NCBI GenBank assembly: GCA_011375345.1 | Contig: DRLM01000017.1 | Coordinates: 675 to 64,674 of the forward strand | DNA: 64,000 nucleotides | Reading direction: 5' to 3' | Source: Gammaproteobacteria bacterium | GTDB lineage: Bacteria; Pseudomonadota; Gammaproteobacteria; DRLM01 | Shown here: in pieces, positions 10,894 to 46,417 of the stretch | How positions within the stretch are numbered: position 1 is the first letter of the stretch | Layout: every line of letters starts with the position of its first letter | Notes under the pieces: generated by a model | Seen by the model: the letters and a program-made list of their open reading frames with translations, nothing else | Told to the model about the DNA's origin: nothing | Databases searched by the model: none | Position numbers and translations under genes: made by a program

Positions 10894-10974
10894 GGAACAG
10901 TTCAGCTTGACGGGATATTGTGCCCCAAACCATGGATGTTGCCATGGCAGGTTCCAGGAAAAGGAGGCACGATC

Positions 10975-12624
10975 ATGACCATTCGAACCATTGTACTTGC
11001 CGGCGCCGTCATCATGCTGGGCGCTTGCAACAGCGGAAACGTATCATCCCCCCCCGGCAAGCCCGGAAACAATGCGTCCGGGCAGCCCGCTTCCACCGCG
11101 GCCTCGTCGGCACCAGTGTCGGCGATGATCACCGACGATCTGAGCACCGCCTACGACGAAGTGTGGGTCACCGTGATTCAGGTCACCGCTGTGAGTGGCG
11201 ACGGTGGGGAATATGTGTTGTTTGACGCCCCTGACGGCGCGGTCTTCAATCTGCGTGAGCTGGCCGATGTGGCCACTTTGCTGGATACCGCAGACCTGCC
11301 CGCCGGTCATTACCCGCAACTCCGGGTGACTTTGGGTGGCGATCTCACCCTGGTGGATCCCCGGGGCCAGGTGCTGCAGGCCCGTTTCACTCCGGGCGGT
11401 GGTCCGAAAGTGCTGACCGTGGCGGCGGATCTTTCGGTCCGGGACGGCCAGCCGGCCAGCTTTGCCCTGGACTTCGACCTCAAGCAATTCAACTATGACC
11501 CCGCCACCGGCCTGGCCACGGCGACCATTGTCTATCGCGACGAGCGCAGCCTGCGCACCCTTCCGGCCCTCAGGGCCGAGTTGTCCGGGCAGGTGACGGC
11601 GGTCACCGACAGCCAACACTTCACCGTCTCGCCCGCGCACAGCGCCGGCGCCGTGGCCGTGACCCTGGCCGCCCAGGCAGTGGTGGTGGACCGCGCCAGC
11701 GACGCGGTGAAGAACGACACCGCTGCCCTGGCCAGCGGCCGGCGGGTGGAGATCTACGGCAACTACGATCCCACGGCGCTGACCATGGAGGCGCTGCGCG
11801 TGACGATCAAGGCCGCCGCTGGCGATGACCTGAACACCCGCGACGAAGCCGAGGGCCGGGTCGTCAGCTTCGACGGCAGCAGCCTGGTGCTGGATGTCAA
11901 AGAGGCCAGCTTCGTGCCCCCCGCCGACTTTCTCACCGTGGCCAATGTCAGCAACGCCCGTTTCACCAAAGGCCGGATGGAGCTGCTGCAAAGCGGCCAG
12001 GAGGTGGTGATCAAAGGGAGCCGGGACGGCAGCCTGCTGTTGGCGGACACGGTGGAAATAGACGGGGCGGCGGCTCCCTCCAGCCAGCGCCCCTTTGAGG
12101 TGGAATACGCCGAGCTGAGCGGCCGGATCAAAGCGCAGGACGGCGACCGGCTCACCGTCACCGTGGGGAAGGCGGAGCATTTTGCTGTCCCGGTGGGCGC
12201 CGAGATGGACGTGGACATCAGCAGCGCCTGGTTCAAGCGGGGGGAGCGGCGCTGCCTTACCGTCGGTGCGCACGCCGAATTCAAGGGCGCAGTGGAAAAC
12301 GGGGCCTTCGTCGCCCGCGCAGTCAAGGTGGAAAGTGGCTGCGGCGTGGGGGCGGCCGATGACGGGCACGGTACAGCCACCAGCGACGAGGGTTCCAGCG
12401 ACGGTGACCGTCAGCGCTCCCGGACCGACGACAGTTCATCGCCGGACGACCGGGCCGGTGCCAGTGACAAGGCGGGAGACGACCATTCCAGCAGCGCCGG
12501 CAGCGCGTCCGATGACCGTTCCAGCGCCCGCGATGGCGCGCGGGATGATCGTTTCGACCGCGGAGACGAGGCGGAGGATGACCCTTCCGGTGACCGGGAC
12601 AGCACCTCAGCCGACGCTCATTAA
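10975..12624 (+). CDS. DUF4382-like lipoprotein with an acidic Ser/Asp-rich C-terminal tail
   Basis: AAGGAGG RBS, 7-nt spacer, ATG 10975. Lipoprotein signal MTIRTIVLAGAVIMLGAC (lipobox LGAC). ITDDLSTAYDEVWVTVIQVTAV...FDAPDGAVFNL matches the DUF4382 N-terminal pattern. The last ~95 aa are D/S/G-rich. Paralogous to 15210..17141. Confidence 0.75.
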   Translation: MTIRTIVLAGAVIMLGACNSGNVSSPPGKPGNNASGQPASTAASSAPVSAMITDDLSTAYDEVWVTVIQVTAVSGDGGEYVLFDAPDGAVFNLRELADVATLLDTADLPAGHYPQLRVTLGGDLTLVDPRGQVLQARFTPGGGPKVLTVAADLSVRDGQPASFALDFDLKQFNYDPATGLATATIVYRDERSLRTLPALRAELSGQVTAVTDSQHFTVSPAHSAGAVAVTLAAQAVVVDRASDAVKNDTAALASGRRVEIYGNYDPTALTMEALRVTIKAAAGDDLNTRDEAEGRVVSFDGSSLVLDVKEASFVPPADFLTVANVSNARFTKGRMELLQSGQEVVIKGSRDGSLLLADTVEIDGAAAPSSQRPFEVEYAELSGRIKAQDGDRLTVTVGKAEHFAVPVGAEMDVDISSAWFKRGERRCLTVGAHAEFKGAVENGAFVARAVKVESGCGVGAADDGHGTATSDEGSSDGDRQRSRTDDSSSPDDRAGASDKAGDDHSSSAGSASDDRSSARDGARDDRFDRGDEAEDDPSGDRDSTSADAH

Positions 12625-12896: not shown

Positions 12897-13889
12897 TCAG
12901 CCCGCGTCCCGCGCACAGCGAAAGCCGACGTCTTCCGAACGCAGCTCCGGCTCCGCGTACTGGCGGGCGGCGCCGCGGAAGAACAGGCTCAAGGCATAGT
13001 GGCCTATGCCGCCGCCACCGCCGCGGATCACTTTGTATTTTTCACCAAAGTTGGCGCTGCTGTAGTCACTGCCGGGATAGGGCTGGTACCAGTCGGCGGT
13101 CCACTCCCACACATTGCCGGCCATGTCGTAGGCGCCGTAGGGGGACCGGTTGCCGGGATAGGCGCCCACGGGGGCGATGCCTTCTTCCCAGTCTTCGTTG
13201 TCGCCGGTGTTGGTGACGGTGGGATCCCACTCGTTGCCCCAGGGATATTCCAGGCCAGCGGGACCGCGGGCGGCTTTTTCCCATTCCGCTTCCGTGGGCA
13301 GGCGTTTGCCGCGCCATTGGCAATAGGCCTGGGCTTCGGCCCAGGTCATGCCGGTGGCGGGGTAGGGGTCCATCGCTTTTTGCGCCGCCTCCATGGCGGT
13401 CATCAGGGCTTTGCGGCTCATGGTGCGGGTGTCCATGTCGAAGCGGAAATGCTCGGCGGCGATGATGCGCAGGATTTTCATGTCCAGGCGTGCCGCTTCT
13501 TCCATGGTGAGGCCGTAGCCGTTGTAGTTCCAGGGCACGGGCAGGGGGCGCTCGGTTTTGAAGATGAAGGCCTTGAACTCAGCGTTGCTGACTTCGTATT
13601 TGTCGATGTAAAAGGCGGGCAGGGTGACGCGGTGCCGGGGGTGTTCGTCCAGGTACAAAGGGGCGGGAAAACCGTAGCGGCTGCTCAAATTCTCCTTGTC
13701 CTCTTTGTTGCTGCCCATGATGAAGTCGCCGGCGGAAACGAGGACCATTTCTTCGGTGACTGTATCGGGGGCGGCTGGGGGCGGGGAGGGGGGGGCCGCG
13801 GCGCCGCTGTTTTTGTCACAGGCGGTGAGCAGCGCGGTGAGGGCACCAACCAGCAGCGGAATGCGTTTTTTCGGAAAGAGCGGTATCAA
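12897..13889 (-). CDS. FGE-sulfatase/SUMF1 (PvdO/EgtB-like C-type-lectin fold) family lipoprotein lacking the FGE catalytic Cys pair
   Basis: TTG 13889 gives MIPLFPKKRIPLLVGALTALLTAC (lipobox). The alternative ATG 13997 would add 36 non-signal residues. Conserved FGE-fold motifs are YIDKYEVSNAEF, AQAYCQWRGKRLPTEAEWEKAARG, GNVWEWTADWY and GFRCARD. No C-x4-C pair precedes GFRC. Confidence 0.8.
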   Translation of the reverse strand: MIPLFPKKRIPLLVGALTALLTACDKNSGAAAPPSPPPAAPDTVTEEMVLVSAGDFIMGSNKEDKENLSSRYGFPAPLYLDEHPRHRVTLPAFYIDKYEVSNAEFKAFIFKTERPLPVPWNYNGYGLTMEEAARLDMKILRIIAAEHFRFDMDTRTMSRKALMTAMEAAQKAMDPYPATGMTWAEAQAYCQWRGKRLPTEAEWEKAARGPAGLEYPWGNEWDPTVTNTGDNEDWEEGIAPVGAYPGNRSPYGAYDMAGNVWEWTADWYQPYPGSDYSSANFGEKYKVIRGGGGGIGHYALSLFFRGAARQYAEPELRSEDVGFRCARDAG

Positions 13890-13944
13890 GGTTGCAGTCT
13901 CTGGCAATGGGTGTCGCTTTCTCTCATCATGCAAAAGGGGCCGG

Positions 13945-14997
13945 TTATTTTTTTTCTCCCTGACTCCTTTTTGCCGACGGGGTGGATGAGAGGGCATGCT
14001 CTGCTGCGGCGTCTTTGGCGCAGCGGAAACCGAAGGTATCGTTTTTGGTTTTGCGGGAGAAGAAGGCGCGGTTGTACACCGGCGCGGAGATGCCGCATTT
14101 GTAGAACGAACAGTCGAACCAGGAGCCGCCTTTCAGCGTCTTGTAGCGCTTGCCGTAATTTTCCGAGGGGGTGTGGTTGCCGGGATAGGCTTCATACCAG
14201 CTCGCCGTCCATTCCCACACATTGCCGGCCATGTCGTAGACACCGTAGGGGCTCTGGCCGCTTTCGAAGGCACCCACGGGGGTGGTGTCCCCGGGCTGGC
14301 CGATGGCGGCCCAGCGCACGGGGGTGTTGGCGCGGGGAAGGCCGAATTCATTACCCCAGGGGAAGCGGCGGCCGTCAGTGCCGCGGGCGGCTTTTTCCCA
14401 TTCCGCATCGGTGGGCAGGCGCTTGCCGGCCCATTGGCAATAGTTCCTGGCGTCGTACCAGTTGACGAAGGTGACGGGATGATCGGCCTTGCCGCGGGGG
14501 TAGGTGCGGTTGACGAAGTGGCGCGGCGAGCGGCGGCCGGCTTCGTCGATGTATTTTTTGTATTGGAGGTTGGTGACCTCATAGCGGTCGATCCAAAACG
14601 CCGGCAGGTCCACCACGTGCTGGGGGCCTTCGTCGGACAGGCGCTCGTCGGTGCCCATGATGAAGGGCCCGGCAGGGATGCGGACCATGGAATTGGGCTC
14701 TGCCCCCAGGCGGCTGTCCTCGTAGTAGAGGGGCAGGGACATGCCGGCGTCGGCCGCCAGGGTGCCCGCCTCCATTTCCGGCTCTTCGCCGGGGGCGACG
14801 GATACCGCCGGCGCGGCCCCGCCGGCGCGGTGGCAGCGCTGACAGCCGGCCCGACTGTCAGCAATGAGTCTGGCCGTGTCCATGCCCTCGCTGTGGCAGC
14901 GGATGCAGCCCTGCTCGCTGTGCAGATGATCAGCAGGCCGCGGCCCGGCCGCGGCGGCCAGGGCGGCGCTTAAAAACAGGGTGAAACTCAAAGCCAT
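13945..14997 (-). CDS. Secreted FGE-sulfatase/SUMF1 family protein with two N-terminal CxxCH (c-type haem binding) motifs and a conserved FGE-like Cys-x4-Cys pair
   Basis: Signal peptide MALSFTLFLSAALAAAAG. CIRCH (14889..14906) and CQRCH (14828..14849). FGE-fold motifs WIDRYEVTNLQY, ARNYCQWAGKRLPTDAEWEKAARG and GNVWEWTASWY. GGSWFDCSFYKCG (14086..14120) aligns with the human FGE catalytic region. Ends GFRCAKD. Confidence 0.8.
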   Translation of the reverse strand: MALSFTLFLSAALAAAAGPRPADHLHSEQGCIRCHSEGMDTARLIADSRAGCQRCHRAGGAAPAVSVAPGEEPEMEAGTLAADAGMSLPLYYEDSRLGAEPNSMVRIPAGPFIMGTDERLSDEGPQHVVDLPAFWIDRYEVTNLQYKKYIDEAGRRSPRHFVNRTYPRGKADHPVTFVNWYDARNYCQWAGKRLPTDAEWEKAARGTDGRRFPWGNEFGLPRANTPVRWAAIGQPGDTTPVGAFESGQSPYGVYDMAGNVWEWTASWYEAYPGNHTPSENYGKRYKTLKGGSWFDCSFYKCGISAPVYNRAFFSRKTKNDTFGFRCAKDAAAEHALSSTPSAKRSQGEKK

Positions 14998-15209
14998 GGT
15001 GTGGCGTTCCTGAAAGCGGAGCGGCGCCCCCCGCGGACGCGCCCGATCGAACCCAGTGCCGTCAAAGGGCAGGCATTATAAAGCATTGCCGGCGGCGGCG
15101 CCGAAGCCGTGTCAACCGATCCCGGCTGCGGCACGTTGAACCAGACACCTACACACGACACCGGCTTGCACCGGGTTTGACAACACTGAAACAAAACTGG
15201 AGGAGAACC

Positions 15210-17141
15210 ATGACACCATTTGCACCGGATTCATTTACATGGCGCGCTTTGCGCCGGGGTGCCGCGGGCTTGCTGCTGGTGCCGGCATTGCTGCTGGGGG
15301 CCTGCGGCGGGGGTTCCGACAGCAATGACCGCACTCTGACCAGCCAGAGCGAAGGCGAGGTGGTCATCGGCCTCACCGACGCCGCGGGCGATTTCCTGGC
15401 CTACGGCGTGGACGTGCTGTCCTTGTCCCTGACCCGTGCCGACGGCACGGAGGTGAATACCCTGCCGGCCACCACCCGCATCGACTTCGCCCAGTACACG
15501 GAGATGACGGAGTTTCTGACCGCTGCCACCATCCCCAACGGGCGCTACGTCAAGGCCACAATGAAACTGAAATATGACGGCGATCCGCCCGCTGATATTC
15601 AGGTGGAGGACGCTGACGGCAAGGCTGTGGCCGCCACCACCATCCTGGACGAAGACGGCAATCCCGCCACCGAACTGAGCGTGGACGTGCAGCTGGAAAA
15701 CGACCGGCCGTTGATCGTCGCCCCCGGAGTGCCCGCCCACATGACCCTGGATTTTGACCTGGCCGCCTCCCACAGCGTGGATTTGAGCGACCCGGCCAAC
15801 CCCGTGGTCACCGTGCAGCCTTTCCTGGTGGCGGATGTGGATCTGGACGAGCCCAAGCCCCACCGCTTGCGGGGCCGCCTAGCGGAAGTGGATCAGGCCA
15901 ATGAGGTCATCACCATTCAGATCCGCCCGGTGTTCCATGTCGGTGATCACGAGTTCGGCCGCTTCAAGGCCTATGTCAGCGACAGCACCGTGTACGAAGT
16001 GGACGGGGAAAGCTACACTGGTGCCGCCGGTCTGGCCGCCCTGGCTTTGCAGGATCCCACCTCCATTGTCGTCGCCATCGGCGAGCTGGATGCGGACCGC
16101 AAATTCAACGCCAGCGAAGTCTATGGTGGTACCTCGGTGGCGGCCAACACCGTTGACGTGGTGCAGGGCCACGTCATCGCCCGCAGTGGGGATGAACTCA
16201 GCGTGCGCGGCGCCACGGTGGTGCGCAAAGACGGCAGCGTCATCTTTCACGACACGGTGGCGGTGACGGTGTGCGACAGCCAGTCGGCGCAGCCCACCAA
16301 GGTCACCAAGCAGGGTGGCGGCAGCGAAACACTGGATATCGACGCCATCTCCGTGGGCCAGCGCATCCGCTTAGGGGGCACCCTGAGCGAGGACGCCTCC
16401 GCCGGCAATCTGTCCCTGGATGCTTGCGGCGGTCATGCCCGGCTGCTGTGGACCCAGATGAGCGGCGAAGTGGTGGCCGTGGCCGACGGCCTGCTCACCC
16501 TGGAGCTGCAACACATCGGTGGCCGGCCGCTTAGCCTGTTCGACTTCAGCGGCACCGGCCTGACGTCGGCGCAGGATGCCGATCCGGCCAGCTATGAAGT
16601 CGATACCGGCACTTTGGACCTCAGCGACAGCGATGATGTCAGCACCATCGCAGTGGGCAGCGCGGTGAAAGTGCGCGGCTTCGTCACCGCCTTCGGTATG
16701 GCGCCGCCGGATTTCAGTGCCCGCACCGTCATCGACCTGGACAAGGCGCCGGCCCACCTGGGCGTGACCTGGCGGCCCGCCACCAATGAGGCCTTTGTCA
16801 GCACCAGCAGCGATCTGCTCATGCTGGACCTCACCCAGCCTCTGGGCAGCCGCCATCACATCTGGCGCCGCGGGGTTCTCACCGACCTGCTGGACTTCCA
16901 GCCCACCGCACCGGGTATCACCCCCAAAGCGACAAGCGGCCGGGGCCTTTACGGGCTGTTGCAGGACGGCACGGCCCAGGTGTTCACCGACTTCGCCAGC
17001 TTTGAGGCGGAGCTGGAGAACCGCTTGAGCGCCGGCGGTCTGGTGGCGGCCACCCACGGGAAGGGGACTTTTGACGATAGCAGCGTGACCTTCAGTGCCA
17101 ACCGCCTGATGGTGCGTCTGCGGGCACCGGCCGGGTCCTGA
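15210..17141 (+). CDS. DUF4382-like lipoprotein (paralogue of 10975..12624)
   Basis: GGAGGA RBS, then ATG 15210. MTPFAPDSFTWRALRRGAAGLLLVPALLLGAC has lipobox LGAC. GLTDAAGDFLAYGVDVLSLSLTRADGTEV...TTRIDF parallels the N-terminal region of the other DUF4382-like protein. The ORF-track start 15177 is upstream and in frame. Confidence 0.75.
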   Translation: MTPFAPDSFTWRALRRGAAGLLLVPALLLGACGGGSDSNDRTLTSQSEGEVVIGLTDAAGDFLAYGVDVLSLSLTRADGTEVNTLPATTRIDFAQYTEMTEFLTAATIPNGRYVKATMKLKYDGDPPADIQVEDADGKAVAATTILDEDGNPATELSVDVQLENDRPLIVAPGVPAHMTLDFDLAASHSVDLSDPANPVVTVQPFLVADVDLDEPKPHRLRGRLAEVDQANEVITIQIRPVFHVGDHEFGRFKAYVSDSTVYEVDGESYTGAAGLAALALQDPTSIVVAIGELDADRKFNASEVYGGTSVAANTVDVVQGHVIARSGDELSVRGATVVRKDGSVIFHDTVAVTVCDSQSAQPTKVTKQGGGSETLDIDAISVGQRIRLGGTLSEDASAGNLSLDACGGHARLLWTQMSGEVVAVADGLLTLELQHIGGRPLSLFDFSGTGLTSAQDADPASYEVDTGTLDLSDSDDVSTIAVGSAVKVRGFVTAFGMAPPDFSARTVIDLDKAPAHLGVTWRPATNEAFVSTSSDLLMLDLTQPLGSRHHIWRRGVLTDLLDFQPTAPGITPKATSGRGLYGLLQDGTAQVFTDFASFEAELENRLSAGGLVAATHGKGTFDDSSVTFSANRLMVRLRAPAGS

Positions 17142-20099: not shown

Positions 20100-20250
20100 A
20101 TCCCTTTAAGAACCCCTCTTCAGCTTTTGAATTTTCTCTAAATTTTTATAGATGCCGTCCGATATTCTCGGTACCGGCCGCGCCCCCTGGCGCGTTTGCC
20201 TGTCGCCACGGAGGGTTGATTTCCCAGTCGCTGACACCGAGGTGAAGTTA
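20100..20250. promoter_or_regulatory. AT-rich divergent promoter region for the giant surface-protein gene and the 19231..20043 gene
   Basis: A local GC drop (TTATGCAATCCCTTTAAGAACCCCTCTTCAGCTTTTGAATTTTCTCTAAATTTTTATAGATGCC) contains TTGAAT and TATAGA/TAGATG-like hexamers. It lies upstream of the GAGGTGA SD and ATG 20251. Confidence 0.35.
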
Positions 20251-23200
20251 ATGACGCGTGGCGCGCTTCGATTCCGTACACTGTCGATCCAAGACCCGCC
20301 TTCCCCCTGCCCCGCCTCCTCCACCTCCGGCACCCTCCGGATTGTTGCGCCGGCCCTGCTGTGCCTGCTCTTGCTTTGGAGCAGCGCCGCCGTGCGCGCC
20401 GGCGATTTTGTTCAAAGCGACTGGTCTGCTGGTATCCCCACCGACACCACGGCCTGCAGCGCTGCCGGTGGCACGTGGACGGGCAGCGAATGCGCCGCCG
20501 TGCATCCGGGCAATCAGACGGGCTGGAGTGCCTACAGCACCAAGGACAGCCTGCTCAATGTGACGGGCGGCGGCGCCGATTTGCAGCTGGGAACCACCGG
20601 TGACAAGGTGCAGGATGGAAGTGAAAGCGATTTCACTTTCAGCCGCAACACCGCAGCGCAGCACACCAGCAATTACGATTTTTCCGTAGGCGGCACGCTC
20701 TCCGCCACCACGGTCCGCAGCGGCGCCGTGCGCTTGAGCGAAACGGGGCACACGCCCTCCTGGGTCGCCAACAGCGCCTGGAACGCGCCCGACGTGGGCA
20801 GCTACAGCAAACCGGCCTTGGCCGATCTGGACAACGACGGTGACTACGATCTGATGCTGGGTTCCTCCAACGGCATTGTGTACGGCTACCGCAACACCGG
20901 CACTGATGCCACGCCCAGCTGGACTTCCCAGAGCAGCTGGAACGCGCCGGACATCGGCAGCTACGTGGCACCGGCCCTGGCGGACCTGGACGGTGACGGC
21001 GATCTCGACCTGATGATCGGCGAATCGGCGGGGCTGACCTTCGCCTACGAAAATACCGGCACCCTCAGCAACCCGGTGTGGAGCGCCAAACCGGAATGGA
21101 ATCTCAGCACCGATGTGGGGAGCTGGGCCGCCCCTGCCCTGGCGGATCTGGACGCTGACGGGGATTTCGATTTGCTGGTGGGCAACGTCGACGGGGTGAG
21201 CTATGCTTTTGAAAACACGGGCAACGCCTCGGCGCCCGTGTGGACCGCCAAGACCGCCTGGAACGCCCCCGACATCGGCGGCTATTCCGGCCCTGCCGCG
21301 GCCGATCTGGACGGTGACGGCGACGTCGACCTGATCATCGGCAGCTCCGGCGGGATCAGCTACGGCTATGCCAACAACGGCGACAACACCTGGACGGCCA
21401 ACACCGCCTGGGACACTCCCGATGCCGGCAGTTACGTGTATCCCGCCCTGGCGGATCTGGACGCCGACGGCGATCTGGACTTCCTCGCCGGCAACATAGG
21501 GGGTAACGCCACCGGCTACCGCAACGACGGCAGCAGCACTTATGCCGCTTCAGGCACGATGACCTCCCCGGTGATCGACACTGTCAGCCAGCTGGGCTTC
21601 ACCACGCTGGATTACAGCGCCACTGTGCCCGCCAACACCACCCTGAGCCTGGATGTGCGCGCCGGGGATACGGCCACCCCCGACGGGAGCTGGACCGCCT
21701 GGCTGACGGGCGTCGCCAACGGTGGCGACATTTCCACGCTGGGGACGCGGCGCTATGTGCAGTACCGGGCTGTGTTCGCCACCACCGACAGCAGCGCCAC
21801 CCCAACCCTCAAGGACATTACCTTCAACTACGCCAACTATCCCCTGGCCAGTGCCGTGGCCCGCTCGGGGGCCGGCAGCGCGGCGGCCGTGACGCTGGGA
21901 ATCAATTTCGCGCCGTCCATCACCGGCACCTACAACAGCCCCTATTCGGTGGTCAGCGTTCATGTCTCCGGCAATTACGCCTTCATCGCCGATGATTCCG
22001 GCAACTCGTTCTCGGCTCACCGCATCGTGGATATCTCCGACCCCGCCAGCCCCGTCCAGGTGGCCTACACTCAGCACGGCGCGCGCATCTGGGATGTGTT
22101 CGTGGCCGGCAGCTACGCCTACGTGGCTGCCACCGACAAGGGCCTGGCAGTGGTGGATATCTCCACCCCCAGTGCCCCGGTAACGGTGGGCACCGTGGAT
22201 ACTCCGGGCTGGGCCTGGGGGGTCTACGTGGAAGGCAGTTATGCTTATGTGGGGGATTACACCACCGGCGGCCTGCAGATCATTGATGTCAGCGACCCGG
22301 CCAACCCCACCATTGTCGGCAGCCTGGACACGCCGGGAGACGCACACCGGATTCATGTTTCCGGCAACTATGCCTATCTCACCGACGGCAGCTCCGGTTT
22401 GCAAATCATCGACGTGTCGGACAAGGCCAACCCCACCCTGGTGGCCACTTATTCCGATACCGTCAACGGCGTCTACGTCAAAGGCAACTACGCCTACATC
22501 ACCGGCACCGGCTTCAAGGTGCTGGACATTTCCAACCCGGCCTCCCCCACGCTGGTGGGAACGGCGGGGGGGGCCAGCGCCGGCCAGGGGGTGATCGTGG
22601 CGGGGGATTATGCCTACATGGCGGACACCAACTATTTGCGGGTGTTTGACATCAGCGAACCCACCACCCCCACCCAGGTAAGCAGTACCGCCGTGACGTA
22701 TATCAACGATGTGTACGTGGTGGGGAATCAGGCCTATGCCTCTGCGGCCAGCGCCGGCATCCACGCCATGTCCCTGGGCCCGTACAGCAACTCGGGATCA
22801 TTCACGTCCCAAATACTGGACGCCGGCCAGCATCTGGGCTGGACCACCCTGTCCGCCACCGCCGCGGTGCCGGCAGGCACCAGCTTGAGCTACGATGTGC
22901 GCGCCGGCGCCAGCGCCACTCCCGACGGCAGCTGGACAGCGTGGATCACCGGCGTGGCGGACGGTGGCGATATTTCCGCCCTGGGCACCCTCCGCTACAT
23001 CCAGTACCGCGCCAACTTCGCCACGAGCGACACCAGCGTCACACCGTCGCTGGATGCCATGGCGCTGAACTTCAACCACTACGCTTACAGTGCCAGCCTC
23101 ATTTCCTCGCCCTTCAACACCACTGCTGCCGGCAATCTGCTGGACGGCCTGGTCTGGACCGAAACGCTGCCCCCAGGCACCGATGTACGCATCGAGCTGC

Positions 23201-26200
23201 GTACCACCCCTGACAGCAGCGGCGCCCCCGGCACCTGGAGCGCCTGGCTGGGTCCCGATGATGCCGCCGGCAGCTACTGGAACTCCGGCAACACCAGTGC
23301 CGGCGGCTGCAGTGGCAGCGGCAGCGTGGTCTGCACGGTCATGGCCGACAGCCAGCGGGACGGCCTGGCGGACCAGTGGTTTCAGTACCGCGTCACGCTC
23401 ACTTCCGATGGCAGCGCCACCCCCACCCTGGCCAGCCTCACCAGCAGCTACGGCAGCAGCGGCAGCAGCGGCATCACGGTGACCCCCACCGGCGGCCTGG
23501 CCACCTCGGAAAGCGGGGGCACAGCCAGTTTCACCGTGGTGCTGGACAGCGCCCCCGGTGCCGATGTCACCCTCGGCATGTACAGCAGCGACACCACCGA
23601 GGGCACGGTCGCGCCCTCTTCGCTGACGTTCACCCCGGCCGACTGGAGCACACCCCAGACCGTTACCATCACCGGAGTCGACGACTTTTTCGACGATGGC
23701 GACGTTGCCTATTCCATCGTCACCGCCGCCAGCGTCAGCAGCGACCCCGCGTTCGACGACATCAACGCCGCCGATGTCAGCATCAGCAACGTGGACAACG
23801 ACACTGCCGGCATCAATGTCTCCCCCACCTCGGGTCTAATCACGACGGAAGCCGGGGCCAGCGCCAGCTTCACCGTGGTGCTGAACACCCAGCCCACGGC
23901 GGACGTGACCCTGGCCCTGTCCAGCTCCAACACGGCCGAGGGCACGGTTGCGCCCGGCTCGCTGACCTTCACCCCGGCCGACTGGAGCACGCCCCAGACC
24001 GTTACCGTCACCGGGGTGGATGAAAACGTCATTGACGGCGATCAGGCCTATACTGTCGTCACTGCCGCCGCCACCAGCGGCGACAGCCAATACAGCGGCT
24101 TCAACGCTGCTGACGTGGCCGTGACCAACAGCGATGACGACACCGCCGCCGTCACCGTGAGCCCCGCCACGCTGACGGTGAGCGAGGCGGGCGCCTTCGC
24201 CCCTTTCACGGTGACCCTCACCAGCCAGCCCACGGCCAATGTCACCATGATGCTGTCCAGCTCCGACAGCAGCGAGGGCATGGTGCTGCCCTTTGCCATG
24301 ACCTTCACCCCCAGCAACTGGAACACACCCCAGACGGCGACGGTGTTCGGGGTAAACGACCAACTGACAGACGGCGACCAGACTTTCGCCATTGTCACCT
24401 CCGCCTTCACCAGCGCTGACAGCAACTTCAACGGCGTCAACCCCGCCGACATCACCGTCACCAACACCGACGACGATACGTATTCCATCATCGTCACCCC
24501 CAGTTCGGGCCTGGTCACCACCGAGAACGGCGGCAGCGCGGAATTTAAAATCGCCCTGGGCACCCAGCCCACGGCGGATGTAACCATCAACCTCAGCAGC
24601 AGCGATACCAGCGAAGGCTATGTCACCCCGTCGTCCATCACCTTCAGCCCCAGCGATATCGTCAGCCGGGGCAAGCCGGTGAAAGTCATCGGCGTAAATG
24701 ACGCCCAGACCGACGGTGACCAAAGCTACTCGGTGATCACCGCCCCCGCGGTCAGCGCCGACAGCAATTTCAACGGCCTGGACGGCGCCGATGTGACGGT
24801 CACCAACCTGGACAATGCCCGCGACCTCATTCGGCTGGAAGGCAACCAGTACGGCGCGTTGTTTGGCTACAGCGCGGCGGCCGCTGATGTCAACGGCGAC
24901 GGTTATCAGGATCTGCTGGTCGGGGCTTACGGCAGCAATACCGTTTATGCGTACCTGGGCTCTCCCAGCGGTTATTCCCTGACCCCCGACTGGAAGGCGG
25001 TGGGCAGCGGCAGTTTCGGTTATGCCGTGGCCAGCGCCGGGGACATCAATAATGACGGCTATGACGATCTGCTGGTGGGCGCGCTGCAATATTACAACGG
25101 CCAGTCCACCGAAGGCGCCGCTTTTCTGTTCCTCGGATCCGCCGCCGGCCTGCCTGATGCAGACAGCGACGGCACTGCCCAATTGTCCGACGCCGCCTGG
25201 GCCTTCGAAAGCGACCAGACCGGTGCCAACGCCGGCGCCGCGGTTGCGGGAGCGGGGGATGTCAACGGCGACGGCTACGACGACATCCTCATCGGGGCCC
25301 AGTACTACGACAACGGCGAATCCAACGAAGGCGCCGCCTTTTTCTTCTATGGCAGCGCCACCGGTCCGGCCGATGCCGACAGCGACGGCATCGCTCGCCC
25401 CGGCGACGCCAACTGGACCTTTGAGAGCGACTATGCCAACGGCTATGCCGGCGCCGCCCTTGCCGGCGCTGGCGATCTCAACAACGACGGCAAGGCCGAT
25501 ATCATCATCGGCATTCAACGCTACAGCAACGGCCAGACCTACGAGGGCCGCGCTGTGGTCTTCTATGGCAGCGCCACCGGCCTCGCGGACGCTGACAGCG
25601 ATGGTACCGCCCGCATGAGCGATGCCGACTGGGCGGCGGAAATCGACCAAACCAGCGCCTACTTCGGTTATGCCGTGGCCGGCGCTGGTGATGTCAACGG
25701 CGACAACTACGACGACATTATCGTGGGAGCATATCTCTGGGATGCCGGTACCACCAATGAGGGCGGGGCCTTCGTCTTCCACGGTTCCGCCAGCGGCCTG
25801 CCCGACGGCGATGGCGATGGCCTGGCCAGGTTCAGCGATGCCAACTGGTCCGCCAGCAGCAGCCAACTCTATGCTGAACTGGGCCGCGCCGTGGCCACCG
25901 TCGGCGACTTCAACGGCGACGGCTACAGCGACGTCATCGTGGCCACCCCCGACTACGATGAAAGCTACGCCAGCGTCAATATCGACGAGGGCCGTGCCGC
26001 CGTTTACCTGGGCGCCGCGTCGGGCCTGGCCGGCAGCGCCTCCTGGACCGTTGCCGGTGAGCAGGCCAGTGCGCTCATGGGCTACGCCCTCGGTGGCCTG
26101 GGCGATCTCAACAGCGACGGCCAGGACGATGTTTTCGTGAGTGCATACCAATGGGAGTCCACCAGCGCCGAGAGCAATGAAGGGGCCGTCTTTGTCTACC

Positions 26201-29196
26201 TGAGCAAACCCCAGTCACCCGCCATCACCGTCACCCCCACCTCCGGTCTGCAAACCTCGGAGAGCGGCACCAGCGCCACCTTTACCGTGGCCCTGAACCT
26301 GCCGCCCACGGGCGATGTCACCATCGGCTTGTCCAGCTCCGACACCGGCGAAGGCACGGTCTCCCCCGGCGCGCTCACCTTTACCCCCACCGACTGGTAT
26401 CTGCCCCAGACGGTCACCGTCACCGGCGTGGATGACAGCGCTTTCGACGATGCTGTGGCCTACACTATCGTCACCGCCGCCGCCAGCAGCACCGACACCC
26501 GCTACAACGGCATCAACCCCAGCGACGTGGCGGTGACCAACAGCGACGACGAGCAGGCCGTCGTCAGCGTGAGCGCCACCGACGGAAGCGCGGCCGAAGA
26601 GGATTTGAGCACTGCCACCTTCACCCTTTCCCGCACCGGCCCCACCAGCGCGCCGCTGACGGTGAATTACACCGTGGGCGGCGATGCCACCCCAGGGAGC
26701 GATTATGTGGCCTTGGGCGGCAGCGTCACCATCCCGGCCGGGAGCGCCTCGGCCACCGTGACCGTCACGCCCCTGGACGACGCCATCGCCGAAGGCAGCG
26801 AGGACGTGTGGCTCAACATCAGCACCGCCGCCGCCTATGCCCGGGGCAGCACCTGGAGCACCAAGGTCACCATCACCGATGACGAGACCGGCGGTATCAC
26901 CGTCACCCCCACTTCCGGCCTGCAAACCCATGAAAGCGGTGGCACGGCCACCTTCACGGTGGTGTTGGACCAGCCGCCCGCGGCCGACGTGACTCTGGCC
27001 TTGCAGAGTTCCGATACCACCGAAGGCGCGGTGGTGCCCACTTCCCTTACGTTCACCCCGGCCAACTGGAACGTGGCCCAGACTGTCACCGTGGTGGGCG
27101 TGGACGACACCGGTTTGGACGGCGACGTGGCCTATACGGTCTACACCGGCGCCGCGGTGAGCACGGTGAGCGTCTACAACGGTCTGAACCCCGCCGATGT
27201 GGCGCTGACCAATCTGGACAACGAGGCCATCAACACCGTGAGCGTCACCGCCGCCACCGCCAGTCTGGCCGAAGCGGGAGCGCCAGCGGTGGCCTTCGTC
27301 GTGAGCCGCAGCGGCGATACCGGCGCCGCCCTGACGGTAAACTACAGCACCGGCGGCACGGCCACCTCCGGTGGCGATTACACCGCCTTAAGCGGCAGCG
27401 TGACCCTGGGCGCCGGCAACGACAGCGCCACCCTCACCCTGACGCCCCTGGACGACGGTACGGTCGAAGGCAATGAAACGGTGGTGCTCAGCTTAAGCAG
27501 CGCCGCCGCCTACCTGGTGGGTAAACCGGCATCGGCCACCGTGACGCTGGTGGACGACGAACAGAACACTCCCCCGGTGGTGAACTTCGGGCTGGATCAA
27601 ACCGTGGCGGAAGGCACCACTGCCACCGTCACCGCCGTGCTCAGCGGCCCGGCCCTGGCCTATCCGGTGACGGTGCCCTACACCGTCGGCGGCACGGCCA
27701 CCAACCCCGCTGACCACGACGCGGCCAACGGCAGCATCACCATCAGTTCGGGACTCAGTGGCAGCACCAGCTTCACCGTGGTGGACGACGGCGCCGGGGA
27801 AGCCGACGAAACGGTCATTTTCACCATGGGCACACCCACCAATGCCGCCGCCGGCGGGCGCACCACCCACACCGTCACCCTGACGGAACTCAATGTGGCC
27901 CCCAAGGTGAAGCTGGCCGCCGCCCAGGGCGGGGCGGGCACGCGGCTGGTGGTCAGCGGCGGCGGCAATGTGACCGTCACCGCCACGGTGAGCGATCCCA
28001 ACCCGGCGGACAGCCACAGCTACGACTGGAGCCGCAGCAACAACAATCTGGTGGACATTACCGACGGTGATCCGGCCACTTTTGTATTCGACCCCACCAG
28101 TCTCTCCCCGGGCTTTTACGCCGTGCGGGTGGACGTGACCGACGACGGCTCCCCTGCCCAGACCGGCCAGGCAGAGCTGCTGCTGCAAGTGGCGGCCAGC
28201 GCACCGGCCTTGTCTGCCGGCACCGACAGCGACGGCGACGGCATCATGGACGACGCCGAATCCTTCGACGACAGCGACGGCGACGGCATCCCCGATTACC
28301 TGGACGCCGCCACATTGGCCTCCCACGAGCTGCAGGTGCTGTCCGGCGAGGCGGCCAGCTACGTCATGCGCACGGAGCCGGGCCTGAGCCTGCGCCTCGG
28401 CGAGGTGTCCTTTGCGGCAGCCGCCGACGGGGCCGAGGTGAGCAGCACCGATATCGCCAGCTACGGTGGCGGTGAAGGCCAGCCGGGCAGCGCCCCGGCC
28501 ACCGACACGGTGGCCAATGTGGGCGGTTATTTCGACTTCGAAATCGGCGGCCTGACCCAGGCGGGGCAGTCGGCGCGGGTGGTCATTCCCCTGCTGGCGG
28601 CCATTCCCGAAGGGGGCACGTACCGCAAATACGACCCGGTCACCGGCTGGGCGGACTTCACCGTGGACAGCGCCAACGCCGTGGCCTCCGCCCCCGGCGC
28701 TCCCGGTGCCTGCCCCCTGCCGGGGGATGCGGCCTACACCAGCGGCCTCGGCAGCGGCCACTACTGTCTGCAGCTCACCCTTCAGGATGGCGGCCCCAAC
28801 GACGCCGACGGCGCGGCCAACTACGTCATTGCTGATCCGGGCGAACTGGCCCTCAAAGCCGTGACGGAGGACGCAGGACCGCTCGCCGCAGATGACAACA
28901 GTGCAGTGGACAATGGCACTGGGGGCACCGGGGGCACCGGGGGCACCGGGGGCACCGGGAGTGACAATACCCCGGCCCAAGACAACCGCCCCGACGCCGC
29001 CGCAACGGGCCGCACCGGCGGTGGCGCGCTTGGTCTCTTCGGCCTGCTCCTGCTGGCCATGGGTGGGCTGTGGACCCGGCAGGCTCCCAGGGCTGAGCCA
29101 GGTGGGGCCACCGCTGGGCCCCGCCTGGAAAAGCCTCTATACTTGGGCGCTGCTTGTTGGGGGAAGGGAGCCGGGAACGATGCGACTGAACAATAA
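20251..29196 (+). CDS. Giant (2981 aa) secreted/cell-surface multidomain protein with FG-GAP propeller x2, LVIVD propeller, Calx-beta and Ig/cadherin-like repeats, TSP3 repeats and a C-terminal hydrophobic sorting-like segment
   Basis: GAGGTGA SD, then ATG 20251 (the ORF-track start 20152 is an upstream in-frame extension). Long signal peptide ...IVAPALLCLLLLWSSAAVRA-GD. Repeated WNAPD(I/V)GSY..PALADLD(G/A)DGD(L/F)DL(M/L)(I/V)G units are FG-GAP. LQIIDVSDPANPTIVGSLDTPG units are LVIVD. TVNYTVGGDATPGSDYVALGGSVTIPAGSASATVTVTPLDD is Calx-beta. TDSDGDGIMDDAESFDDSDGDGIPDYLD is TSP3-like. The C-terminus is GRTGGGALGLFGLLLLAMGGLWTRQ. Confidence 0.85.
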   Translation: MTRGALRFRTLSIQDPPSPCPASSTSGTLRIVAPALLCLLLLWSSAAVRAGDFVQSDWSAGIPTDTTACSAAGGTWTGSECAAVHPGNQTGWSAYSTKDSLLNVTGGGADLQLGTTGDKVQDGSESDFTFSRNTAAQHTSNYDFSVGGTLSATTVRSGAVRLSETGHTPSWVANSAWNAPDVGSYSKPALADLDNDGDYDLMLGSSNGIVYGYRNTGTDATPSWTSQSSWNAPDIGSYVAPALADLDGDGDLDLMIGESAGLTFAYENTGTLSNPVWSAKPEWNLSTDVGSWAAPALADLDADGDFDLLVGNVDGVSYAFENTGNASAPVWTAKTAWNAPDIGGYSGPAAADLDGDGDVDLIIGSSGGISYGYANNGDNTWTANTAWDTPDAGSYVYPALADLDADGDLDFLAGNIGGNATGYRNDGSSTYAASGTMTSPVIDTVSQLGFTTLDYSATVPANTTLSLDVRAGDTATPDGSWTAWLTGVANGGDISTLGTRRYVQYRAVFATTDSSATPTLKDITFNYANYPLASAVARSGAGSAAAVTLGINFAPSITGTYNSPYSVVSVHVSGNYAFIADDSGNSFSAHRIVDISDPASPVQVAYTQHGARIWDVFVAGSYAYVAATDKGLAVVDISTPSAPVTVGTVDTPGWAWGVYVEGSYAYVGDYTTGGLQIIDVSDPANPTIVGSLDTPGDAHRIHVSGNYAYLTDGSSGLQIIDVSDKANPTLVATYSDTVNGVYVKGNYAYITGTGFKVLDISNPASPTLVGTAGGASAGQGVIVAGDYAYMADTNYLRVFDISEPTTPTQVSSTAVTYINDVYVVGNQAYASAASAGIHAMSLGPYSNSGSFTSQILDAGQHLGWTTLSATAAVPAGTSLSYDVRAGASATPDGSWTAWITGVADGGDISALGTLRYIQYRANFATSDTSVTPSLDAMALNFNHYAYSASLISSPFNTTAAGNLLDGLVWTETLPPGTDVRIELRTTPDSSGAPGTWSAWLGPDDAAGSYWNSGNTSAGGCSGSGSVVCTVMADSQRDGLADQWFQYRVTLTSDGSATPTLASLTSSYGSSGSSGITVTPTGGLATSESGGTASFTVVLDSAPGADVTLGMYSSDTTEGTVAPSSLTFTPADWSTPQTVTITGVDDFFDDGDVAYSIVTAASVSSDPAFDDINAADVSISNVDNDTAGINVSPTSGLITTEAGASASFTVVLNTQPTADVTLALSSSNTAEGTVAPGSLTFTPADWSTPQTVTVTGVDENVIDGDQAYTVVTAAATSGDSQYSGFNAADVAVTNSDDDTAAVTVSPATLTVSEAGAFAPFTVTLTSQPTANVTMMLSSSDSSEGMVLPFAMTFTPSNWNTPQTATVFGVNDQLTDGDQTFAIVTSAFTSADSNFNGVNPADITVTNTDDDTYSIIVTPSSGLVTTENGGSAEFKIALGTQPTADVTINLSSSDTSEGYVTPSSITFSPSDIVSRGKPVKVIGVNDAQTDGDQSYSVITAPAVSADSNFNGLDGADVTVTNLDNARDLIRLEGNQYGALFGYSAAAADVNGDGYQDLLVGAYGSNTVYAYLGSPSGYSLTPDWKAVGSGSFGYAVASAGDINNDGYDDLLVGALQYYNGQSTEGAAFLFLGSAAGLPDADSDGTAQLSDAAWAFESDQTGANAGAAVAGAGDVNGDGYDDILIGAQYYDNGESNEGAAFFFYGSATGPADADSDGIARPGDANWTFESDYANGYAGAALAGAGDLNNDGKADIIIGIQRYSNGQTYEGRAVVFYGSATGLADADSDGTARMSDADWAAEIDQTSAYFGYAVAGAGDVNGDNYDDIIVGAYLWDAGTTNEGGAFVFHGSASGLPDGDGDGLARFSDANWSASSSQLYAELGRAVATVGDFNGDGYSDVIVATPDYDESYASVNIDEGRAAVYLGAASGLAGSASWTVAGEQASALMGYALGGLGDLNSDGQDDVFVSAYQWESTSAESNEGAVFVYLSKPQSPAITVTPTSGLQTSESGTSATFTVALNLPPTGDVTIGLSSSDTGEGTVSPGALTFTPTDWYLPQTVTVTGVDDSAFDDAVAYTIVTAAASSTDTRYNGINPSDVAVTNSDDEQAVVSVSATDGSAAEEDLSTATFTLSRTGPTSAPLTVNYTVGGDATPGSDYVALGGSVTIPAGSASATVTVTPLDDAIAEGSEDVWLNISTAAAYARGSTWSTKVTITDDETGGITVTPTSGLQTHESGGTATFTVVLDQPPAADVTLALQSSDTTEGAVVPTSLTFTPANWNVAQTVTVVGVDDTGLDGDVAYTVYTGAAVSTVSVYNGLNPADVALTNLDNEAINTVSVTAATASLAEAGAPAVAFVVSRSGDTGAALTVNYSTGGTATSGGDYTALSGSVTLGAGNDSATLTLTPLDDGTVEGNETVVLSLSSAAAYLVGKPASATVTLVDDEQNTPPVVNFGLDQTVAEGTTATVTAVLSGPALAYPVTVPYTVGGTATNPADHDAANGSITISSGLSGSTSFTVVDDGAGEADETVIFTMGTPTNAAAGGRTTHTVTLTELNVAPKVKLAAAQGGAGTRLVVSGGGNVTVTATVSDPNPADSHSYDWSRSNNNLVDITDGDPATFVFDPTSLSPGFYAVRVDVTDDGSPAQTGQAELLLQVAASAPALSAGTDSDGDGIMDDAESFDDSDGDGIPDYLDAATLASHELQVLSGEAASYVMRTEPGLSLRLGEVSFAAAADGAEVSSTDIASYGGGEGQPGSAPATDTVANVGGYFDFEIGGLTQAGQSARVVIPLLAAIPEGGTYRKYDPVTGWADFTVDSANAVASAPGAPGACPLPGDAAYTSGLGSGHYCLQLTLQDGGPNDADGAANYVIADPGELALKAVTEDAGPLAADDNSAVDNGTGGTGGTGGTGGTGSDNTPAQDNRPDAAATGRTGGGALGLFGLLLLAMGGLWTRQAPRAEPGGATAGPRLEKPLYLGAACWGKGAGNDATEQ
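20750..21540 (+). other. Domain region: N-terminal FG-GAP (integrin-alpha-like) beta-propeller, about six blades with DxDxDG calcium-binding loops
   Basis: About six tandem units, e.g. SWNAPDIGSYVAPALADLDGDGDLDLMIGES, each of ~60 aa. Confidence 0.7.
21940..22780 (+). other. Domain region: LVIVD-repeat beta-propeller
   Basis: Repeats such as HVSGNYAFIADDSGN...RIVDISDPASP, GLAVVDISTPSAP, GGLQIIDVSDPANP, SGLQIIDVSDKANP and FKVLDISNPASP. Confidence 0.7.
24830..26180 (+). other. Domain region: second FG-GAP beta-propeller (about seven blades)
   Basis: Repeats like FGYSAAAADVNGDGYQDLLVGAYG and GAAVAGAGDVNGDGYDDILIGAQYYDNGESNEGAAFFFYGSATG, a classic integrin-alpha FG-GAP/Ca-loop pattern. Confidence 0.75.
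26560..27890 (+). other. Domain region: tandem Calx-beta-like domains interleaved with ~100-aa Ig/cadherin-like repeats
   Basis: LTVNYTVGGDATPGSDYVALGGSVTIPAGSASATVTVTPLDDAIAEGSEDVWL and ALTVNYSTGGTATSGGDYTALSGSVTLGAGNDSATLTLTPLDDGTVEGNETVVL are Calx-beta. The GITVTPTSGLQTxESGGTATFTVVLDxxP...TFTPxxWxxPQTVTVxGVDD repeats (also 23470..24830) are Ig/cadherin-like. Confidence 0.7.
28915..28959 (+). repeat. Perfect 9-bp tandem repeat (GGCAC[C/T]GGG)x5 encoding (GTG)5 linker
   Basis: ggcactggg ggcaccggg ggcaccggg ggcaccggg ggcaccggg read directly from the sequence. In frame (9 bp) within the giant gene, just upstream of the C-terminal hydrophobic segment. Confidence 0.9.
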
Positions 29197-34378: not shown

Positions 34379-34486
34379 GATATTTGCTCGTGCTAGTAAT
34401 TGATGCGGTTTGAAAGGGCGCGCGTCCTCGGCCTCCCCCTTCGGGAAAGGGGGCCCGAGGCCTGCGGCTTGCGACGCGGCTTGTTG

Positions 34487-35932: not shown

Positions 35933-35964
35933 GGGTTAACCTGTACGTCGCGTGGAATCAAGGT

Positions 35965-37374: not shown

Positions 37375-37547
37375 ACCTGCACGGCCTTTTTTTGAGGATG
37401 CCTGTCTCACAGCAAGCCCTCATTTGCTGTAATATCGCCTCTTTGCTTTCGACATTAAGGTGGACATGGGGCAGCCAGGCGCCAGCTTCAAAGACGTGGG
37501 GCCCGGTGTGATGACTGCCCGACCGCAACGCTGACCGAACGGCCTCT

Positions 37548-38396: not shown

Positions 38397-38418
38397 CCCG
38401 CAAAGGACAAAAACAACC

Positions 38419-41241: not shown

Positions 41242-41290
41242 CACCCGGCCTAAGGACTCGGTCCGGCGTACGTTTGAGGGGGGGGGGAGC

Positions 41291-44415: not shown

Positions 44416-44511
44416 GCCGCCCTGGCCCGGCGCCGACTGTGCTGGTGAGCTGTGCGGGACAGTCCCCCGGCGAAACAAATCTTCTATAATCCCGCCTCCT
44501 TGCCACGTTGA

Positions 44512-46407: not shown

Positions 46408-46417
46408 GGGGATCAAA

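Follow-up and report, generated by a model that had tools for sequence, protein, structure and literature searches.

A putative dihaem formylglycine-generating enzyme-like protein and its lipoprotein paralogue are encoded by a conserved gene pair

Introduction

The formylglycine-generating enzyme (FGE) fold supports Cu(I)-dependent C-H activation, as in FGE itself, and C-S bond formation, as in EgtB and OvoA. FGE also needs two external electrons, for which no physiological source is known. The FGE-fold superfamily comprises about 215,000 clusters at 50% identity (E≤1e-3), and most of them are without an assigned function. Among the described members, FGE holds Cu(I) with two cysteines and requires O2, the EgtB-type sulfoxide and selenoxide synthases need an N-terminal DinB_2 domain for their iron ligands, PvdO is a presumed oxidoreductase for which in vitro activity is yet to be demonstrated, and Tsi3, a type VI secretion (T6SS) immunity protein, has an FGE domain and binds the effector cognate to it (bioRxiv 10.1101/2021.05.21.445229). 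Here we describe two adjacent FGE-fold genes, A and B, in a 64,000-nucleotide stretch of DNA from a member of the Gammaproteobacteria (GenBank assembly GCA_011375345.1, contig DRLM01000017.1, positions 675 to 64,674 of the forward strand). This stretch is referred to below as the window, and coordinates are in its own numbering unless a related locus is named.

A preliminary description of the window, made from its letters alone, had placed both open reading frames (ORFs) on the minus strand and taken them for an exported two-gene unit of the FGE-sulfatase family, and our analysis agrees on each point. Gene A encodes a fusion of a putative dihaem cytochrome module to an FGE-like domain and gene B, immediately downstream, a putative lipoprotein paralogue. 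The conserved haem motifs and the invariant cysteine loop of A, the linkage of A to B, a neighbouring cytochrome c gene and the lack of nearby sulfatases lead us to favour a redox module. At a rough probability of 0.4, we propose that A is a c-haem-wired, FGE-like periplasmic oxidoreductase for which B is a tether or helper, probably engaged in the O2-dependent oxidation of a thiol substrate that is not a sulfatase.

Results

Two candidate haem sites and an invariant cysteine loop in protein A

In a Pfam profile search PF03781 matched gene A at E=2e-62 (residues 102-328) and gene B at E=1.2e-59 (residues 46-327), both above the gathering score of 23.3 bits. We assembled the best 120 homologue clusters for each protein; those of A are 58-69% identical and 324-391 residues long, and all carry PF03781, while those of B are 54-73% identical. 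Mean column identity is 53% in the A family and 57% in the B family, indicating strong constraint on both. The reading of A as a dihaem fusion with a conserved cysteine pair was borne out by these homologues: exactly two CxxCH motifs, 19-25 residues apart, are present in 119 of the 120 closest clusters, and the pair itself, as CxxYxC, in every one. The coordinates of the parts of both genes are collected in Table 1.

Table 1. Features of the A-B gene pair in the window
Feature	Coordinates	Strand	Basis
Gene A, exported putative dihaem-cytochrome/FGE-like fusion, 350 residues	13945..14997	-	ORF, PF03781, homologues with the same architecture
Predicted Sec-type signal peptide at the N-terminus of A, residues 1-18 (approximate), MALSFTLFLSAALAAAAG	14944..14997	-	Read from sequence; cleavage site inferred
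First putative haem-c attachment motif of A, C31-I-R-C-H35 (CIRCH)	14893..14907	-	Sequence, invariant columns
Second putative haem-c attachment motif of A, C52-Q-R-C-H56 (CQRCH)	14830..14844	-	Sequence, invariant columns
Variable linker of A, about residues 57-85, from dihaem module to FGE-like domain	14743..14829	-	Homologue alignment
FGE-sulfatase (PF03781) domain of A, residues 102-328	14014..14694	-	Pfam profile
Invariant D295-C296-S-F-Y299-K-C301 loop of A, at the position of the FGE active-site loop	14095..14115	-	Homologue alignment
A-B spacer, 55 nucleotides, from A stop to B TTG start	13890..13944	-	Sequence
Gene B, putative lipoprotein FGE-like paralogue, 330 residues from TTG start	12897..13889	-	PF03781, homologues, position 3' of A
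Lipobox L21-T-A-C24 of B (LLTAC = residues 20-24; Cys24 codon 13818-13820)	13818..13829	-	Sequence, alignment
B-specific insertion, about 60 residues, NGYGL...LR.IAA..F.LDMDT...	13349..13540	-	Alignment of 27 homologues, A/B length difference
B version of the active-site loop, GGGGGIGHYALS	12987..13022	-	Gapless alignment to human FGE

Two CxxCH motifs following a signal peptide mark A as an exported protein with putative c-type haem sites. The N-termini of its homologues are hydrophobic and end in A-x-A-like sites, and C31, C34, H35, C52, C55 and H56 are invariant in an alignment of 40 homologues. A candidate distal histidine lies upstream in 112 of 119 A homologues. Full-length A matched no cytochrome family in Pfam. 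When ten N-terminal dihaem fragments of the family were searched instead, they gave weak matches to Cytochrom_c3_2, Cytochrome_C7 and Paired_CXXCH_1, nine of them sub-threshold and one above the Paired_CXXCH_1 cut-off (24.1 versus 20.6 bits); a few weak zinc-ribbon or DnaJ-type matches also appeared, and every top match was to a multihaem cytochrome family. The linker that follows the module differs in length and sequence across the 40-sequence alignment, is rich in Ala, Pro, Gly and Glu and, over residues 60-69, has a predicted local distance difference test score (pLDDT) below 50 in the better of two AlphaFold models. The sequence of protein A is also on record in a hydrothermal-vent metagenome contig and in an NCBI record of a metagenome-assembled genome (MAG) labelled Gammaproteobacteria.

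The C-terminal region of A contains GGSWFDCSFYKCG, in which C296 and C301 are encoded at nucleotides 14095-14112. Within the 40-sequence alignment D295, C296, S297, Y299, C301, G302, S304, P306, N309 and R310 are invariant, and C-x-x-Y-x-C persists in Nitrospinota and 'delta' relatives of 40-48% identity. Cluster representatives at the 50% identity level combine two CxxCH motifs with the pattern GGSW[FYWV][DN]C..Y.CG[ILM]S[AS]P..NR, and these include Nitrospinota-like (CLSYGC) and 'delta'-like (CMFYGC) versions of the loop. In the GTDB relatives sampled, no protein has CxxYxC unless it also has CxxCH, and more distant relatives (36-47% identity) have neither, which suggests that the loop is functionally tied to haem-borne electrons, in cis or in trans. 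One 300-residue lipoprotein (P0334) departs from this pairing by having the CxxYxC loop without haem motifs. Two further architectures were seen: in P0324 CxxxCH replaces the first CxxCH, and in P0341 the dihaem-FGE unit follows a polytopic membrane domain some 300 residues long, an arrangement that may be a gene-call fusion.

The cysteine pair of A compared with that of FGE

The preliminary description equated the pair of A with the catalytic cysteines of FGE. The CxxxxC spacing on which this was based is indeed that of C336-C341 in human FGE, but C341-C346 are spaced alike. We set the loop of A (GGSWFDCSFYKCGISAPVYNRAFFSRKTKND) beside the loops of S. coelicolor, T. curvata and human FGE taken from PDB entries. 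The signature common to FGE from Streptomyces through human is C-H-x-S-Y-C-x-R-Y-R-x-A-A-R-x-x-N-T-P-D-S-S, whereas A has D-C-x-x-Y-x-C-G-I-S-A-P-x-x-N-R-x-F-F in its place and shares with FGE the GGS motif, the cysteine pair and one arginine (R310 of A, R349 of human FGE); from the anchoring serine to this arginine the loop of A is 2 residues longer. The core motif of true FGE, C-H-x-S-Y-C-x-R-Y-R, is found neither in A, which reads D-C-S-F-Y-K-C-G-I-S, nor in B, which has Gly and Ser at the cysteine positions.

Alignment programs differed in where they placed the pair. HMMER put D295, C296 and C301 of A on human C336, C341 and C346, MAFFT L-INS-i and G-INS-i both put the pair one residue ahead of C336 and C341, and a MAFFT alignment of A with B gave a third register. 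In our own reading, a single-residue insertion on each side would superpose both cysteines of A exactly on the FGE pair. The pair thus falls within the active-site loop of FGE and is a candidate, not an established, counterpart of the copper ligands C336 and C341, since the three registers disagree; to this extent, and with the FGE signature absent, the earlier equation was overstated. We also modelled A with AlphaFold, once from 40 close homologues and once from 121 A and B sequences. The first model was unreliable in the loop (pLDDT 33-45).

Protein B is a putative lipoprotein that lacks the cysteine pair

The N-terminus of B, (M)IPLFPKKRIPLLVGALTALLTAC, has the character of a lipoprotein signal and fits the lipobox pattern [LVI][ASTG][GA]C, so that B is a putative lipoprotein. 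A lipobox-like motif is found within the first 60 residues of 102 of the 120 B homologues, with Cys24 nearly invariant in the B alignment. B contains no cysteine pair and no CxxCH, and CxxCH is likewise missing from its 120 best homologues. The downstream gene had been described in just these terms, as a lipoprotein without the pair, and the fold motifs quoted for the two proteins are also present, except that B reads YIDKYEVSN where EVTN had been given.

The loop of B aligns with human FGE without gaps, with Gly at C336, His retained at H337 and Ser at C341. Across 27 homologues G291, G293, G296, H297 and Y298 are invariant, in the pattern ...GGGGxGHY...R...R.... The B-specific insertion, which is absent from A and from canonical FGE, has its own invariant residues (G124, Y125, R141, F148, D151 and D153). 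Calls of the B start vary: one gene caller begins a 366-residue protein at an ATG at 13997, overlapping A, and NCBI records 283 residues from an internal Met, a call that cuts away the signal peptide and lipobox. We consider the TTG at 13889 the best start because orthologues open with clear lipoboxes.

Linkage and distribution of the A-B pair

We surveyed one genome for each of 185,579 species in GTDB and kept the best 80 loci, 35 of which hold near-full-length relatives of A. The carriers are Gammaproteobacteria (including Chromatiales/Chromatiaceae and Tenderia), Gallionellaceae, Nitrotoga, Nitrospinota and MAGs labelled 'Deltaproteobacteria' and Thermodesulfobacteriota; most are autotrophic oxidisers of iron, sulfur, nitrite or cathodes. 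Of about 30 independent loci at species level from the gamma/beta group (Gammaproteobacteria, Gallionellaceae and Nitrotoga), nearly all have B directly after A. Tandem A-B-A'-B' arrangements occur in Kaarinaea lacus (locus L088, 8001-12114) and in a Gammaproteobacteria MAG (L011, 274-4391), with the second B shorter at 294 residues, which indicates that the pair duplicates as a unit. At 'delta'-type loci between one and three shorter FGE-like proteins come after A, and most of these have N-termini of the lipoprotein type.

In the window itself the spacer between the two genes has no promoter-like site, and its terminator-like matches do not exceed the number found in shuffled sequence. These features fit a putative co-transcription of A and B.

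Other collections were also searched. Plasmid records, rhizobial or other, gave no full-length relative of A, the best matches being at ≤40% identity and confined to the FGE domain. A profile search of 1.84 billion protein representatives yielded about ten informative single-domain representatives. It was topped by giant proteins of 1,400-6,300 residues (P0241-P0249 and others) that hold 3 to 18 tandem FGE-like domains and rank first because scores are summed over domains. No description of a haem-FGE fusion was found in the full-text literature that was searched, including work on the cytochromes of iron oxidisers.

Genomic neighbourhood

Neighbouring genes were compared by all-against-all clustering of the ORFs from 38 loci and by a Pfam census of the 112 nearest neighbours. 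The sole recurrent family is a class-I monohaem cytochrome c of about 120-180 residues, found at seven loci and encoded directly upstream of A in L030, L031, L037 and L040. Coordinates for this gene are L030 1826-2275, L031 9433-9879, L037 3725-4246, L040 30-566, L016 14336-14704 and, approximately, L015 11828-12181. Six of the seven cytochromes (CSQCHG...LMPPW) end in LRxLCxC(E/Q/T/R)(Y/F/H)xG, with an extra CxC pair that the L032 homologue lacks; this C-terminal motif could be a metal site or even the target of an FGE-like enzyme.

No sulfatase family is among the frequent neighbour families of the Pfam census. A scan for [CS]-x-P-x-R-type motifs that covered 732 kb, namely the window plus about 670 kb from related loci, returned three matches, which we take to be spurious because all are in unannotated frames and two fall inside the spans of FGE-like genes in L016 and L017. 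The earlier statement that no sulfatase-type target (CxPxR or SxPxR) is encoded nearby consequently holds for the window and extends to the related loci. The window gene calls and the census revealed no siderophore genes near the pair, and among the 112 neighbours the 25 commonest Pfam families include no copper chaperone, Sco, PCuAC, NirK or oxidase family.

Other genes around the pair were less consistent. Two DUF4382 lipoprotein genes flank A and B (10918-12624 and 15177-17141, both on the plus strand); one also has a DUF5666 domain, and the 568-residue DUF4382 lipoprotein closes with about 90 low-complexity residues in which Asp, Ser and Arg abound. A search for co-occurrence of DUF4382 with the two FGE-like proteins had been suggested. 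We rejected DUF4382 as a part of the module, since both the 38-locus clustering and the census showed that it flanks the pair in this genome only. In one 'Deltaproteobacteria' MAG (L030, 5843-10619, plus strand) a cluster of cytochrome c, dihaem-FGE and three lipoprotein-FGE genes runs into further genes on the same strand, namely a second cytochrome c, a COX1-family protein of 443 residues, a CbbQ/NorQ-family ATPase and a 680-residue ORF. We read these as norC-, norB-, norQ- and norD-like, the first by position. A general linkage to nor or nir genes was discarded, because among the loci examined it was seen at L030 only.

Elsewhere in the window, about 5 kb from the FGE pair, a 3014-residue ORF (20152-29196, plus strand) combines six LVIVD repeats with FG-GAP repeats and two Calx-beta domains; it probably encodes a giant surface or adhesin-like protein. 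A 773-residue ORF (54729-57050, plus strand) combines NIR_SIR and NIR_SIR_ferr domains with a C-terminal TusA sulfurtransferase domain and fits a sulfur-metabolising host. Five long ORFs between 34400 and 46512 (34400-36220 on the plus strand; 37488-38567, 39946-41508, 42280-45216 and 45271-46512 on the minus strand) have no Pfam match at E≤1e-5. Some of these may be antisense artefacts of high GC content, since ORFs overlap them on the opposite strand.

Discussion

In the scheme that we favour, A would be exported by the Sec pathway and loaded with two c-type haems through the machinery of cytochrome-c maturation. The haems would sit on a c3/c7-like mini-domain of about 40 residues, joined by a flexible linker to an FGE-fold catalytic domain whose invariant D-C-x-x-Y-x-C loop would lie where FGE holds its two copper-binding cysteines. 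Two electrons would be exchanged through the haems between the periplasmic cytochrome-c pool and the cysteine-pair site, which may be a Cu(I)-dithiolate or a redox-active dithiol. This site would support an FGE-like, probably O2-dependent, two-electron oxidation of a thiol-containing periplasmic substrate other than a sulfatase. Membrane-anchored and without the cysteines, B would be the partner of A in tethering or substrate presentation, in the manner of SUMF2 with SUMF1. What we infer is that A carries haem and binds a metal, that it forms a complex with B, which way the electrons flow and to what class the substrate belongs. The idea in the preliminary description, that the haem may supply electrons to a copper- and O2-dependent centre, is a possible, conjectural reading. 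A bolder version, which we regard as doubtful, would make A the first FGE-type copper/thiol oxygen-activating enzyme to be hard-wired to an electron supply, the two c-haems delivering the two electrons of FGE; A and B would then perform a novel oxidative modification of a periplasmic protein cysteine or small thiol, widespread among chemolithoautotrophs that oxidise iron, sulfur, nitrite or cathodes.

Several observations weigh against a redox module of this kind. The FGE signature that flanks the copper ligands (C-H-x-S-Y-C-x-R-Y-R and NTPDSS) is missing from A, the register of the pair depends on the alignment method and the pair could be a simple structural disulfide. Even the second AlphaFold model, with a mean pLDDT of 84.9, reaches only 67-76 in the loop. 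Nitrospinota relatives have one CxxCH and no adjacent B, and a B-type gene stands beside trp genes without an adjacent A in L086. The family is also present in MAGs labelled Deltaproteobacteria and Thermodesulfobacteriota; if these carriers are strict anaerobes, an O2-dependent reaction becomes less likely. Finally, the sequence gives no sign of the direction of electron flow.

The last point bears on a reading that we find credible, if less than probable, in which electrons run the other way. A would be a dehydrogenase or thiol oxidase. Its substrate (protein thiols or, as has been proposed for PvdO, a small molecule) would be oxidised at the site in the FGE fold, perhaps by way of the CxxxxC dithiol/disulfide, and the haems would pass the two electrons on to cytochrome c and so to the respiratory chain. 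The same architecture and the same cytochrome c neighbour would serve this purpose, the reaction would work without O2, as suits the 'delta' and Thermodesulfobacteriota carriers, and PvdO, itself a periplasmic FGE fold, is named dihydropyoverdine dehydrogenase in NCBIfam. The relay from mitochondrial Erv1 to cytochrome c offers an analogy. However, A reaches only 69 bits against a PvdO cut-off of 500, we know of no protein with this fold that passes electrons to haem and the sequence is as silent on direction here as it is for the favoured scheme. A role in copper handling, which we judge unlikely, would have the cysteine pair bind Cu(I) and the haems reduce Cu(II) to Cu(I) for delivery to cuproenzymes of the periplasm or membrane, for example cbb3/aa3 oxidases, NirK or NosZ, with B as the membrane-side partner. 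The two cysteines of FGE do bind Cu(I), a similar role has been suspected for NirV beside nirK, the L030 cluster runs into nor-like genes and, in part from general knowledge, the carriers are respiratory chemolithotrophs rich in cuproenzymes. Against this, the nor linkage is confined to one locus, none of the copper-related families named above is among the 25 commonest in the neighbour census, and the strongly conserved FGE-fold surface together with the insertion of B suggests an enzyme or substrate-binding role over that of a chaperone.

FGE folds have often been co-opted without catalysis (bioRxiv 10.1101/2021.05.21.445229), PorK/GldK and GldJ being lipoprotein scaffolds and Tsi3 a binder of protein, and B is a putative lipoprotein; A and B might likewise form a structural or binding complex, in which the haems would do no more than conduct electrons or sense gas or redox state and the cysteine pair would be a structural disulfide. 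This is distinctly unlikely in view of the active-site-region residues of A and B, which are invariant across phyla and look more enzyme-like, and of GldK and GldJ scores far under their cut-offs. The most frequent neighbour families contain no T6SS genes, though no search was dedicated to that system, and a part in the type IX secretion system (T9SS) is unlikely because the carriers are Proteobacteria and Nitrospinota, not Bacteroidota, to which the T9SS belongs. It is very unlikely that A is a genuine periplasmic FGE that matures Cys-type sulfatases encoded elsewhere, with the haems in place of the unknown reductant. Such an enzyme would accord with the PF03781 fold, with a CxxxxC pair placed in the active-site loop and with Ser292 and Trp261, which occupy the places of Ser333 and Trp299 in FGE. 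However, around the pair A lacks the signature that FGE keeps from Streptomyces and Thermomonospora to human, neither the window nor the roughly 670 kb of related loci contains a sulfatase gene or a credible C/S-x-P-x-R motif, and the carriers are mostly autotrophs living on iron, sulfur, nitrite or cathodes. By our own, uncertain reasoning, sulfatase targets might in addition no longer be unfolded on reaching the periplasm. Least probable of all is that the CxxCH motifs are free of haem and that the N-terminal region is a Cys4-type metal (zinc) knuckle or a disulfide-rich module. That module is very small, nine of its ten fragments fell below the Pfam cytochrome thresholds while a few drew weak zinc-ribbon or DnaJ-type matches, and the candidate distal His, present in 112 of 119, is not universal. 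However, at both motifs 119 of 120 homologues retain a His immediately behind the second Cys, which no zinc site would need; A carries a Sec export signal, the top Pfam matches are all multihaem cytochromes with one fragment above the Paired_CXXCH_1 cut-off, and a cytochrome c gene recurs next to A.

The A-B subfamily is strongly conserved, we found no published study of it, and it is abundant in environmental Gammaproteobacteria, Gallionellaceae, Nitrotoga and Nitrospinota, organisms responsible for iron, sulfur and nitrogen cycling and for cathodic electron uptake. A covalent dihaem fusion would provide a spectroscopic and electrochemical handle on electron exchange with the FGE fold, which is hard to study in canonical FGE and PvdO. 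Should the cysteine pair bind copper, A would offer a natural model of the reductant that FGE is missing; otherwise A would represent a new redox use of the fold. Either way, the annotations 'formylglycine-generating enzyme family protein' and 'nonheme iron enzyme' are misleading for these genes.

How the pair relates to described FGE-fold systems can be judged from profile and structure matches. In the PDB the sequences matched best, with identities of about 30-40%, are those of SUMF2/pFGE, SUMF1/FGE, ToxD and CalU17, and the best NCBIfam scores are 114 bits for EgtB, 108-114 for SenA, 85-90 for GldK and 69-70 for PvdO, all 3-7 times below the respective cut-offs and spanning only the C-terminal half of those models. 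The Pfam and PDB matches make the fold assignment secure, and the sub-cut-off NCBIfam scores place the subfamily in none of the characterised ones; no curated NCBIfam equivalog claims A or B and no solved structure covers the subfamily. The preliminary description had suggested that the module may be uncharacterised and had proposed profile searches as a check. These searches upheld it: both proteins match PF03781, CxxCH is conserved in orthologues of A, and every NCBIfam equivalog that was matched has a cut-off 3-7 times above the scores of A and B, so that no well-characterised subfamily lays claim to either.

EgtB, OvoA, SenA and OvsA are cytoplasmic, and A and B score 45-114 bits against their cut-offs of 360-420 (3-4 times below), in the C-terminal FGE-like part of the models only, and Pfam finds no DinB_2 domain in them. 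PvdO (5HHA; NF051459) is a periplasmic FGE fold required for dihydropyoverdine oxidation, encoded in pyoverdine clusters and lacking a haem module. With 69.3 bits for A and 70.3 for B against a cut-off of 500, neither belongs to its family, and the label 'PvdO-like' that B had received was overstated, its loop being collinear with human FGE. CalU17 (7MSY, calicheamicin) and ToxD (7SPQ, toxoflavin) are both cytoplasmic proteins of secondary metabolism with no haem motifs and no lipoprotein partner. PorK/GldK and GldJ of the T9SS are, like B, cell-envelope FGE-fold lipoproteins, but A and B score 24-90 bits against cut-offs of 350-458; these proteins and Tsi3 differ from the pair in phylum and gene context, and none has haem or a conserved cysteine pair. 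NirV, encoded beside nirK, is another uncharacterised FGE-family protein linked to a respiratory copper process, and the L030 cluster adjoins nor-like genes; however, no nirK stands beside the loci examined, and A is set apart from NirV by this gene context rather than by direct sequence comparison. We know of no report of a dihaem module in NirV.

With FGE (human 1Y1E, S. coelicolor 6MUJ and T. curvata 6S07) A shares the PF03781 fold at 29-33% identity. The structural cysteines C218 and C365 of the human enzyme are retained as C187 and C326, and the serine of GGS and the tryptophan of WEW as Ser292 and Trp261. The C235 partner of C346 is lost, EKAARG replacing EYSCRG, and A adds an N-terminal dihaem module and a Sec signal and has no sulfatase context nearby. 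The best PDB match of A is pFGE/SUMF2 (1Y4J), which scores 118 bits, or 148 bits when the family profile is used, and aligns without gaps over the loop region. SUMF2 forms heterodimers with SUMF1. B, a Cys-less paralogue of otherwise canonical length beside a Cys-bearing one, is reminiscent of SUMF2 beside SUMF1, although SUMF2 is a eukaryotic protein of the endoplasmic reticulum whereas B is a putative bacterial lipoprotein that contains an invariant GHY as well as its conserved insertion of about 60 residues. In conclusion, the A-B pair is a new variant within the known FGE-fold superfamily.

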